A stretch of DNA of 30,633 nt, taken from positions 1-30,633 of the forward strand of contig RKSH01000193.1 in NCBI GenBank assembly GCA_007570945.1. Direction: 5' to 3'. Both the position numbers and the translations under genes were made by a program. This DNA is from Gammaproteobacteria bacterium (GTDB taxonomy: Bacteria; Pseudomonadota; Gammaproteobacteria; Arenicellales; Spongiicolonaceae). The notes beneath the pieces are model-generated. The model saw only the letters and a program-made list of their open reading frames with translations, ran no database searches and was not told where the DNA came from. This document shows positions 6,168-8,161 of this stretch, in pieces (the stretch's first letter is position 1; every line of letters begins with the position of its first letter).

Positions 6168-8161
6168 CGCCGGTGGCGCGCTTGCGGCCGGTTTTTGTCG
6201 GCGGCGTGACGGTGTCCAACGCGACGCTGCACAATGAGGAGGAAATCAAGCGCAAGGATGTGCGTGTCGGCGACACCGTGGCGGTGCGCCGCGCCGGCGA
6301 CGTGATTCCGCAGGTGGTCGCGGTGGTGAAAGAACAACGCCCGGCGCACGCAAAACCCTACCGTTTTCCCGCCCGCTGCCCGTCCTGCGGCAGCAAGGTG
6401 GTGCGCGACACCGAGGGTGAGGGCGTGGTCAGCCGCTGCAGCGGCGGGCTGGTGTGCCCGGAGCAGACGGTGCGGCGGTTGCAGCATTTTGTCTCGCGCG
6501 CGGCCTTTGACATTGAGGGGCTGGGCGGCGAATTGATTCGGGAATATCTGGAGCACGGCTGGATTTGGTCGCCGGCGTCCATTTTCACGTTGCCGTCGCG
6601 CATGGAACACGTTCTGGAAATTAAAAAACTCACCAACGCCGGCCAGGCCGTCGGCAACCGGGTGAACAATCCCAAGGACTCATTTTCCGCGGATAGATTG
6701 GCGGTGCGGGCGGAAGAGTATTTGCGGGAAAACAAACTTGACCGCGCTTTTGCCGGGCGCGTGGTGGCGGCGGAGATTGCAACCAGCGGCGCCGGTGGCG
6801 GCCGGGTTGTGGAGATCGCATGCGTTGAGATTAACCGCGCTTTGCCCGGCGGAAAAGCGTTGCACCATTATGTTAACCCCGGGTGCAAGGTGGACGCGGA
6901 TGCGGTGGCGGCGCACCGGTTGTCCGACGGTTTTCTGGAACAGTTTCCAAAGTTCGGCGCGGTTGCGGATGAAGTGGCGGATTTTATCGGCGGCGCGCCG
7001 GTGGTTGCATGGAATGCCGGGGCGAAAATGAAAATCCTGCACGGCGAGTTTGCGCGGTGCGGAAAAAAAACGCCGAAGTTTTCCGCGGCCGATGCCGGCG
7101 ACCTGGCGCGGCGGTGCTTTCCCGCGGAGGAAAAACGTCTTGCCGCCCTGGGCGCGCGCTTTGACCTCCGCCCCGGCGGCCGGCGCATGCGCGGCGCGTT
7201 GGTTGATGCGCGGACTCTTGCGCGAATTTACCCGGGCCTGGTGGGCGGCGCGCGCCGGGGTGAGATGACCGCCCCGGCAAGATTGTTTGGCAATCTGGCG
7301 CGGCAAATTGAGGCCCGGCGCTCGGTGCCGCTGGAACGTTTTATTTTTGCCCTCGGCATTCGCCATGTGGGCGAGGGCACCGCGCTGCTGCTTGCGCAGG
7401 CTTACCGTTCACTGAAAAACTTCACCCAAGGATTGCAGGATGCAATGCGGGAATGCGCGGACCGTCGGCAACGGCAATCCTCCGTTTATTACTACGAACT
7501 CATCGGCATTGGCGGAATCAACGCCAAAGCGGCGGAGTCGCTGCTGAAGTTTGCAGCGGGTCCAATGCCATTGTTTGCGGACGAAAGTTCCATCGCGGAA
7601 TTAATCCAACAGCACGACAAAAAACGCGGCGGTGAAATTCAGCATGTGGGAAAACTGCTGGCGGCCCGGTTGGAACAAACCTACGGCACGGTGGAAAATT
7701 TCCTCAGGCGCTTGCGCGAGGCCGCGAAGGAGCCTCCCTTGCGCGAAAAATCCGCCTACAACGCGCTGAGAAACATTGACGAGGTGGGCGATGTGCTGGC
7801 CCATTCTCTGATGGATTTCCTCAGTGATGAGCACGGCCTGGAAATGATGGAAAGCCTGGCAAAGCAGGTGAAAGTCATGCCGACCCGTGTTGCGGCCGTG
7901 TCTGCGGATGCTCCCCTGGCCGGCAAAACGGTGGTTATCACCGGCAAATTTGAGGGTATGGACCGCTCCCAGGCCAAGGCCCGGGCGGCTGAGTTGGGCG
8001 CCACCGTGGTTAATTCCGTCACCTCCAAGACGGATTTGGTGATTACCGGCAAAGACGCCGGAAAGAAAAAACTTGACAAGATAAGCGCCCTGGGAATCAA
8101 CCAAATGGATGAGGTGCAGTGGTTGGAAATTGCCCTCCCGAACAAAGGCCCCGGTTCCTGA
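6128..8161 (+). CDS. ligA: NAD-dependent DNA ligase, C-terminal part (OB fold, Zn finger, HhH, BRCT) with an inserted DnaQ-like domain
   Basis: [35 protein letters not shown] Zn finger, [36 protein letters not shown]. In a different frame from the N-terminal fragment; the TTG start is unconfirmed. Confidence 0.88.

Follow-up and report, generated by a model that had tools for sequence, protein, structure and literature searches.

What is an exonuclease fold doing inside a DNA ligase, and can it still cut? The question is raised by a ligA gene on contig RKSH01000193.1 of GenBank assembly GCA_007570945.1, of which positions 1 to 30,633 of the forward strand were analysed (this whole stretch of 30,633 nucleotides is called the window below, and all features described lie on its forward strand). 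The host is an uncultured sponge symbiont of the order Arenicellales (Gammaproteobacteria). LigA, the NAD+-dependent DNA ligase, is regarded as among the most uniform of bacterial replication enzymes, and is an antibiotic target partly for that reason. An earlier note, made from the letters of the window alone, had proposed that residues ~211-374 of the open reading frame (ORF) at 6128-8161 form an epsilon-like domain of the DEDDh exonuclease type, lodged as a pseudo-nuclease in the DNA clamp of the ligase, and had ranked it as the best candidate for a new system. The module proves to be real, conserved and under purifying selection; what carries it is a variant ligase and not a new system.

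The nuclease domain spans residues 211-375 of that ORF (window 6758-7252), and profile, sequence and fold comparisons agree on what it is. Pfam RNase_T (PF00929) matches residues 224-368 with an E-value of 1.3e-12 and 49.1 bits, against a cut-off of 24, and no other domain was detected by Pfam in the insert. Among PDB sequences, the segment matches epsilon chains of Escherichia coli DNA polymerase III (Pol III) and nothing else, with an E-value of 2.6e-23. In an AlphaFold2 model of the ligase region containing both inserts described below, the predicted local distance difference test (pLDDT) score is 88-98 across the domain, which has the RNase H-like alpha/beta fold of DEDDh exonucleases. The top Foldseek matches are the epsilon structures 2GUI, 2IDO and 1J53 (target TM-scores of 0.85-0.86, root-mean-square deviations of 1.9-2.1 Å, 32% identity), and the exonuclease domain of PolC, 2P1J, is also among the fold matches. 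The N-terminal exonuclease of DnaQ epsilon is thus the best match in both sequence and structure, although the inserted domain is basic where epsilon is acidic, is embedded in another enzyme and has no tail: the match stops at residue 182 of the 243-residue chain (at GGQ), and the C-terminal segment with which epsilon binds the alpha subunit and the clamp is absent.

The second half of the question, whether the domain can still cut, is addressed by its catalytic residues. Aligned with 67 canonical DnaQ domains, every one of which has the pentad D-E-D-H-D, the domain of the window reads E-A-K-R-D: D12 is replaced by E, E14 by A, D103 by K and H162 by R, and only D167 is kept, as the earlier note had said. 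The first two of these positions belong to ExoI, D103 to ExoII, and H162 and D167 to ExoIII. Judged by fold and residues, the inserted domain is a DEDDh homologue by descent, not a functional member of the superfamily. The host also keeps a separate, intact, full-length dnaQ (contig C49) and an orn gene, so the inserted domain is not the replicative proofreader.

The position of the domain within the ligase is equally specific. The insert as a whole (insert 1) is ~211 residues long and lies in frame within the helix-hairpin-helix (HhH) region, between the first helix of the second motif (HhH2) and its DNA-contacting hairpin. The alignment with E. coli LigA (PDB 2OWO) stops at residue 479 and restarts at 493, which bears out the earlier claim that the ligase resumes after the domain. 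The stretch 6485-6619 encodes HhH motif 1 and the opening helix of HhH2, and aligns both with normal LigAs from the order and, as far as residue 479, with E. coli LigA. Next comes a conserved 46-residue linker (6620-6757) that has no Pfam match and is absent from normal LigAs, and then the nuclease domain. The R-x-G hairpin of HhH2 (RRGEMTA; RMGPKSA in E. coli) comes directly after the closing GG of the domain; hairpin and HhH3 together occupy 7253-7429 (E. coli residues 493-535). Pfam HHH_2 matches here at residues 404-438 with an E-value of 5.4e-16, covering only half of its profile because the profile is interrupted. Compared with normal LigAs of the order, insert 1 displaces nothing but the turn before the 'RMG' hairpin.

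A second insert of ~109 residues (insert 2, 7430-7756) lies between HhH3 and HhH4, at E. coli residues 535/540. It is a partial duplication of the HhH3 unit (41% identity over 32 residues, E-value 4e-6), gives weak HHH_2 and HHH_5 matches and contains a GIGGI-type HhH motif. With this extra pair, the ligase has six HhH-like motifs versus the usual four.

How unusual is such a ligase? Relatives were sought in 5.8 billion protein clusters, with HMMER over 1.84 billion representatives, and in 185,579 species genomes. Only a handful of exonuclease-LigA proteins were recovered, about eleven among the 5.8 billion clusters, with at least nine distinct sequences having the same in-frame architecture in independent JGI, NCBI, ENA and Logan assemblies. 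Scanning the GTDB genomes with a single protein gave no further family members, and the alignment-based scan of those genomes gave two species only. The large cluster search with the clade C protein (see below) as query gave no new members, and AFDB cluster representatives match only the exonuclease part of the model. In 39 genomes from other families of the same order the LigAs are ordinary, the frames around the matches being mostly 675-760 codons long. Literature searches found no description of a LigA with an exonuclease domain, in keeping with the earlier note, and the one protein of the window's type deposited at NCBI, from a gammaproteobacterial metagenome-assembled genome (MAG), bears only the automatic label 'LigA'. 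A LigA with an inserted exonuclease domain is therefore rare and, as far as could be found, undescribed. The earlier note had named three findings that would sink its reading, namely that the segment lacks the DEDDh fold, that reads or relatives lack the insert or that the architecture is already catalogued; none of the three turned up.

The proteins fall into three clades. Clade A, from the Arenicellales, includes the window and comprises five orthologues of 1006-1016 residues, drawn from JGI, NCBI and Logan assemblies, whose inserts are 74-99% identical. The uninterrupted gene with the insert that the earlier note had proposed looking for is thus present in five sister species, at ~1006-1016 residues, and in four sponge metagenomes; one sister species (genome G001) has the same architecture in an intact gene of 1016 residues with 86% identity. 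Clade B consists of three proteins of 920-931 residues, in an NCBI MAG labelled Deltaproteobacteria (STY1_bin_8, here G041), and clade C of one protein of 940 residues. A linker pattern, K..TNA......R..NP, is invariant in all three clades, and insert 2 is limited to clade A, being found neither in clades B and C nor in normal LigAs. The clades differ in their catalytic residues. The pentad is D-E-D-H-D in clade C, D-E-C-H-D in clade B (only the ExoII Asp is lost) and E-A-K-R-D in all five species of clade A. With four or all five of the catalytic residues kept in the sister clades, the dead domain is a derived state of an exonuclease-ligase that was probably once active.

Net charge shifts in step with the catalytic loss, from DnaQ through clades C and B to clade A. 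The 67 DnaQ domains have values of -5 to -14 and the clade C domain has -6; clade B ranges from -1 to +1, and clade A from +2 to +11 with an isoelectric point (pI) of 8.4-9.9; the domain of the window itself has a charge of +8 and a pI of 9.7. The dead domain of clade A is under purifying selection. The ratio of nonsynonymous to synonymous divergence (dN/dS) is 0.34 in the exonuclease domain, 0.34 in the linker, 0.23 in insert 2 and 0.185 in the ligase core, and no insertions or deletions (indels) are seen within the clade over a synonymous divergence (dS) of ~0.2-0.4. For clade B the values are 0.40 in the domain versus 0.17 in the core, not counting the G041 sequence, which had been extracted out of frame.

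On balance, we infer that the clade A domain extends the clamp of the ligase by binding DNA without catalysis, in an enzyme descended from one that edited 3' ends. In the ancestral enzyme, trimming of the 3' end would have been coupled to sealing of the nick, as may still be the case in clade C. In the line leading to clade A the nuclease would then have died, with Lys and Arg taking the positions of metal ligands, and the dead domain would have been retained as a DNA-binding module adjoining the HhH2 hairpin. There it would not cut but could enlarge the grip of the ligase on the DNA at the nick or close to it, and the two extra HhH-like motifs of insert 2 could reinforce the enlarged clamp. 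A DNA-binding role had been suggested in the earlier note; it keeps the standing of a proposal, one that the charge reversal supports.

A wider reading, which we put forward more tentatively, is that the three clades make up an undescribed family of replicative NAD+-dependent ligases with a built-in 3'-5' exonuclease of the epsilon type. At least clade C might then be self-editing, sealing nicks after trimming any 3' ends there that are mismatched or damaged. Just as tentatively, unrelated sponge symbionts would acquire the gene from one another through horizontal transfer and recombination, and the enzyme of the window would be a nuclease-dead descendant with an enlarged DNA clamp.

Several observations weigh against the proposed clamp extension and its history. 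The insert has roughly double the dN/dS of the ligase core, and in the tree the stem branch of clade A is 1.62 long, compared with 0.6-0.65 for clades B and C; both would also fit a decaying passenger domain that needs only to fold. The DNA-binding role is argued from position, charge and conservation, and model confidence is low (pLDDT 47-57) for the linker and for the way it packs on the HhH motifs. Clade C, the one with the complete pentad, is known from one contig of one sequencing run (Logan, SRR29844788). Finally, two proteins encoded on JGI contigs, P0006 and P0007 (9,971-nucleotide contig), are missing 74 residues, from late in the linker to a third of the way into the exonuclease domain, and such a deletion, if real, would show the exonuclease domain to be dispensable.

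The main rival explanation draws on the same facts. It holds that the domain is an evolutionary relic, a functionless neutral passenger kept because it is embedded in an essential gene where its loss or misfolding would harm HhH2, so that the purifying selection would reflect foldability and no positive role. The doubled dN/dS, the very long stem to clade A, the loss of four of five catalytic residues and the presence of the deletion variants in the database are all as a relic would have them. Other features of clade A are harder to obtain by decay. The identical residues E-A-K-R-D are fixed at the dead site in five species, the charge reversal is directional in a way that random drift is not, indels or other decay are absent over the synonymous divergence sampled, and extra HhH motifs have been gained in the same clade. 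As for the deletion variants, the sequences of P0006 and P0007 on the two sides of the gap resemble different strains, and because of this difference they are probably strain-chimeric assemblies. We therefore consider a relic unlikely, while regarding it as the most serious competitor of the DNA-binding extension.

Two further explanations are less likely than either of these. The dead epsilon fold could be a protein-docking platform that recruits a replisome or repair partner, or an exonuclease acting in trans; this seems improbable. Its appeal is that the fold is conserved without its catalytic residues and that, at one clade A locus, a gene for a 420-residue RNase_T-BRCT protein, with an intact DEDDh domain and BRCT at its C-terminus, overlaps the ligA stop codon (L018:9014-10276, JAPPPJ010000113.1). 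However, that is the only examined clade A locus with the exonuclease-BRCT gene, which was not found in the genome of the window (G000) or beside its ligA; the insert ends at the GG closing the epsilon core, so that the polymerase- and clamp-binding tail is absent; and the charge shift favours a nucleic acid over a protein as ligand. Residual or altered catalysis, in which Glu12, Asp167 and the new Lys and Arg would cut by a one-metal or metal-independent mechanism, is more doubtful still. The change from D to E at position 12 is conservative, D167 and N99 are retained and the pocket residues are invariant in clade A, but the full pentad is present in all 67 canonical DnaQ domains, and here four residues have changed together, with metal ions likely to be repelled by the positive charge of two of the replacements. 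Single substitutions at DEDDh catalytic residues are enough to abolish epsilon activity. A chimera of assembly or binning that joined an exonuclease segment to ligA can be rejected with near certainty: the MAG is fragmented into 242 contigs and the same gene does carry one assembly error (the 277-bp deletion discussed below), but the same in-frame architecture recurs in at least nine distinct sequences from four independent assembly sources and in the sister species G001, and contigs from four separate runs are identical across the insert.

Comparison with known systems helps to place the enzyme. Canonical LigA, as in E. coli, has the same order of Ia, adenylation (KxDG), oligonucleotide-binding (OB), C4 zinc finger, HhH and BRCT domains in ~670-690 residues, whereas the ligase of the window type has ~1006, the difference including the 211-residue insert and the 109-residue HhH-like insert. 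In PolC-type Pol III, an active epsilon-like DEDDh domain is inserted in the PHP domain and proofreads synthesis. PolC is thus an earlier example of a replication enzyme that has, within one polypeptide, an epsilon-like DEDDh domain nested in another of its domains, although there the host is a polymerase and the nuclease is active, while here the host is a ligase and the nuclease of clade A is dead. Thermus Pol I contains a vestigial 3'-5' exonuclease domain. Maelstrom has a pseudo-exonuclease domain of the DEDD/DnaQ-H type (PMC2628886). In both of these the DEDD-type fold has outlasted its catalytic acidic residues and been reused in a non-canonical role, as in clade A, but the host proteins and lineages are different and neither case is within a DNA ligase. 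For clade C and the inferred ancestor, the closest functional analogue is LigD, the multifunctional ATP-dependent ligase of bacterial non-homologous end joining, which has a 3'-end-processing phosphoesterase (PMC7470946). LigD likewise has end preparation and sealing in one polypeptide; it differs in its ATP-dependent core, in the unrelated fold of its phosphoesterase, in having its modules at the termini rather than inserted, and in acting on double-strand breaks with Ku instead of being a replicative ligase.

Where did the domain come from? In the tree, the nine exonuclease domains form one clade with a Shimodaira-Hasegawa approximate likelihood ratio test (SH-aLRT) support of 99, within the proteobacterial DnaQ radiation and outside the Arenicellales DnaQ clade that holds the dnaQ products of G000 and G001. 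The identical insertion site and the shared linker, together with this placement, point to one ancient insertion rather than a recent duplication of the resident dnaQ. By this sequence evidence, an exonuclease from a proteobacterial dnaQ-like gene entered LigA a single time, in the common ancestor of what is now a small lineage. Other sources were considered and rejected. A recent duplication of the host dnaQ is unsupported, as the insert is not within the Arenicellales DnaQ clade. For a mobile-element or intein-like insertion, there are neither flanking direct repeats nor any insert domain besides RNase_T. The exonuclease-BRCT gene next to the L018 ligA is more distant than DnaQ (31% identity over 108 residues), and in the tree it falls outside the group of DnaQ and LigA exonuclease domains.

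The ligase cores carrying the insert also belong together. The cores of clades A, B and C group with an SH-aLRT of 95, share 65% identity with each other and reach 57-58% with Arenicellales LigAs. The LigAs of the genome relatives of clade B/C share 66% identity as a set, but the clade B/C core shares just 49% with them. The genes flanking the clade B ligA (L019/L021/L022) tell a different story: their AlaS and RecA products are nearest those of the same genome relatives, at 63-65% and 80% identity, and only 46-48% and 62-67% identical to those of the Arenicellales. These flanking genes rule out misbinning of the clade B contig, since both are closest to G041's genome relatives. The shared insert and the pattern of identities indicate horizontal transfer of ligA, and in clade B there has apparently been a replacement of the essential ligA in an unrelated sponge symbiont. 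On topology alone, a tree placing the clade B/C core beside the ligases of the genome relatives is not rejected by an approximately unbiased (AU) test (p = 0.27). The clade B host lineage gave no canonical match of the dnaQ type, only DinG-like exonuclease-helicase fusions.

Recombination within the gene adds to this picture. The clade C gene is a mosaic, with a core 92% identical to clade B and an HhH-plus-exonuclease segment (L020:2551-3750) only 27-68% identical. The segment has a GC content of 43-58% within a gene of 65-75%, and flanks that are 85-91% identical to clade B. GC content at third codon positions is 0.44-0.60 in the segment and 0.7-0.88 in the flanks; dS to clade B is >1 and ~0.3, respectively. 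Because this segment is foreign and recombinant, an unsampled lineage of lower GC content with the same architecture must exist. Within pairs of clade A ligA genes (L006, L017, L018, L108 and L109), one segment can differ from another three- to four-fold in synonymous divergence; in insert 2, for example, the dS between G001 and the clade A protein P0002 is 0.95, versus ~0.25 elsewhere in the gene. Such unevenness indicates recombination between clade A lineages inside ligA.

An essential ligase with an epsilon domain inside its DNA clamp shows that the architecture of LigA can be remodelled. The clades offer a natural series, from an intact pentad through the loss of one residue to a fully dead, basic domain, and with it two questions can be asked: whether end-editing can be physically coupled to ligation, and how a nuclease becomes a nucleic-acid-binding module. 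The lineage is also an apparent case of an essential replication gene being replaced horizontally, across unrelated symbionts living in sponges. An exonuclease-ligase or an extended-clamp ligase could serve as a tool enzyme. The series from intact to dead, and the apparent horizontal spread, make the ligase more interesting than the earlier note, made from one sequence, could show.

The remaining parts of the gene are those of an ordinary LigA, apart from one defect of this assembly. The window is contig C129 of a fragmented MAG (G000; 1.8 Mb, 242 contigs, 88% complete), with the gene order smc, zipA, ligA and the zipA-ligA synteny kept. Here, ligA is split over two ORFs, at 5385/5418-6167 and 6128-8161. 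The start at 5418 matches that of the intact 1006-residue protein P0002, encoded on a JGI contig (L017) that is 99.6% identical. The 5' part (5418-6123) encodes the Ia (nicotinamide mononucleotide-binding) domain, with a Pfam Nlig-Ia E-value of 1.2e-9 (window 5385-6164), and the first two-thirds of the adenylation domain, including motif I (EPKLDG). Between 6123 and 6124, comparison with L017 by blastn shows a clean gap of exactly 277 bp (~92 codons), with no microhomology at the junction and a shift of frame. Nucleotidyltransferase motifs IV and V (DGVVYK and AHKFPA) fall within the missing part, and because of the gap the Pfam DNA_ligase_aden match (E-value 1.5e-65) covers only profile positions 3-164 of 253. 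The domain is complete (positions 3-253) in G001 and G041, and the missing part is also present in P0002.

Contigs from other assemblies settle the nature of the gap. Apart from one run with a coded organism name, all runs recorded as holding the window stretch are sponge metagenomes. Four sponge-metagenome runs each have a long contig (7.8-17 kb) that matches both flanks exactly, has the 277 letters between them and is identical to the window over the entire insert, with zero differences. Because these contigs and L017 contain the missing 277 bp, the frameshift is an artefact of this assembly, the gene in the population is intact with 1006 codons, and a ligA pseudogene is ruled out.

Downstream of the junction, the domains follow in the usual LigA order, and outside both inserts the protein is collinear with E. 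coli LigA, to which the intact orthologue is matched by phmmer with an E-value of 7.7e-181. The OB fold lies at 6131-6349 (Pfam DNA_ligase_OB, residues 2-74, E-value 2e-32) and the C4 zinc finger at 6374-6460 (DNA_ligase_ZBD, residues 83-111, E-value 1.5e-6). After the HhH motifs and inserts described above come HhH motif 4 and the linker to BRCT at 7757-7909, which align with normal LigAs and with E. coli LigA from residue 540, and finally the BRCT domain and stop codon at 7910-8161 (BRCT, residues 596-657, E-value 1.5e-12). A single LigA was found in each of the three genomes examined (G000, G001 and G041). Because it is the only one found there, the insert-bearing LigA should be the replicative ligase, and its status as sole LigA indirectly supports NAD+-dependent nick sealing. 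The same three genomes also gave weak matches (29-34 bits, just above the cut-off) to an ATP-dependent DNA ligase adenylation domain, at G000:C193:7570-8040, G001:C107:3540-4010 and G041:C47:48409-48675, and these reduced genomes may thus have a second, ATP-dependent ligase-like gene.

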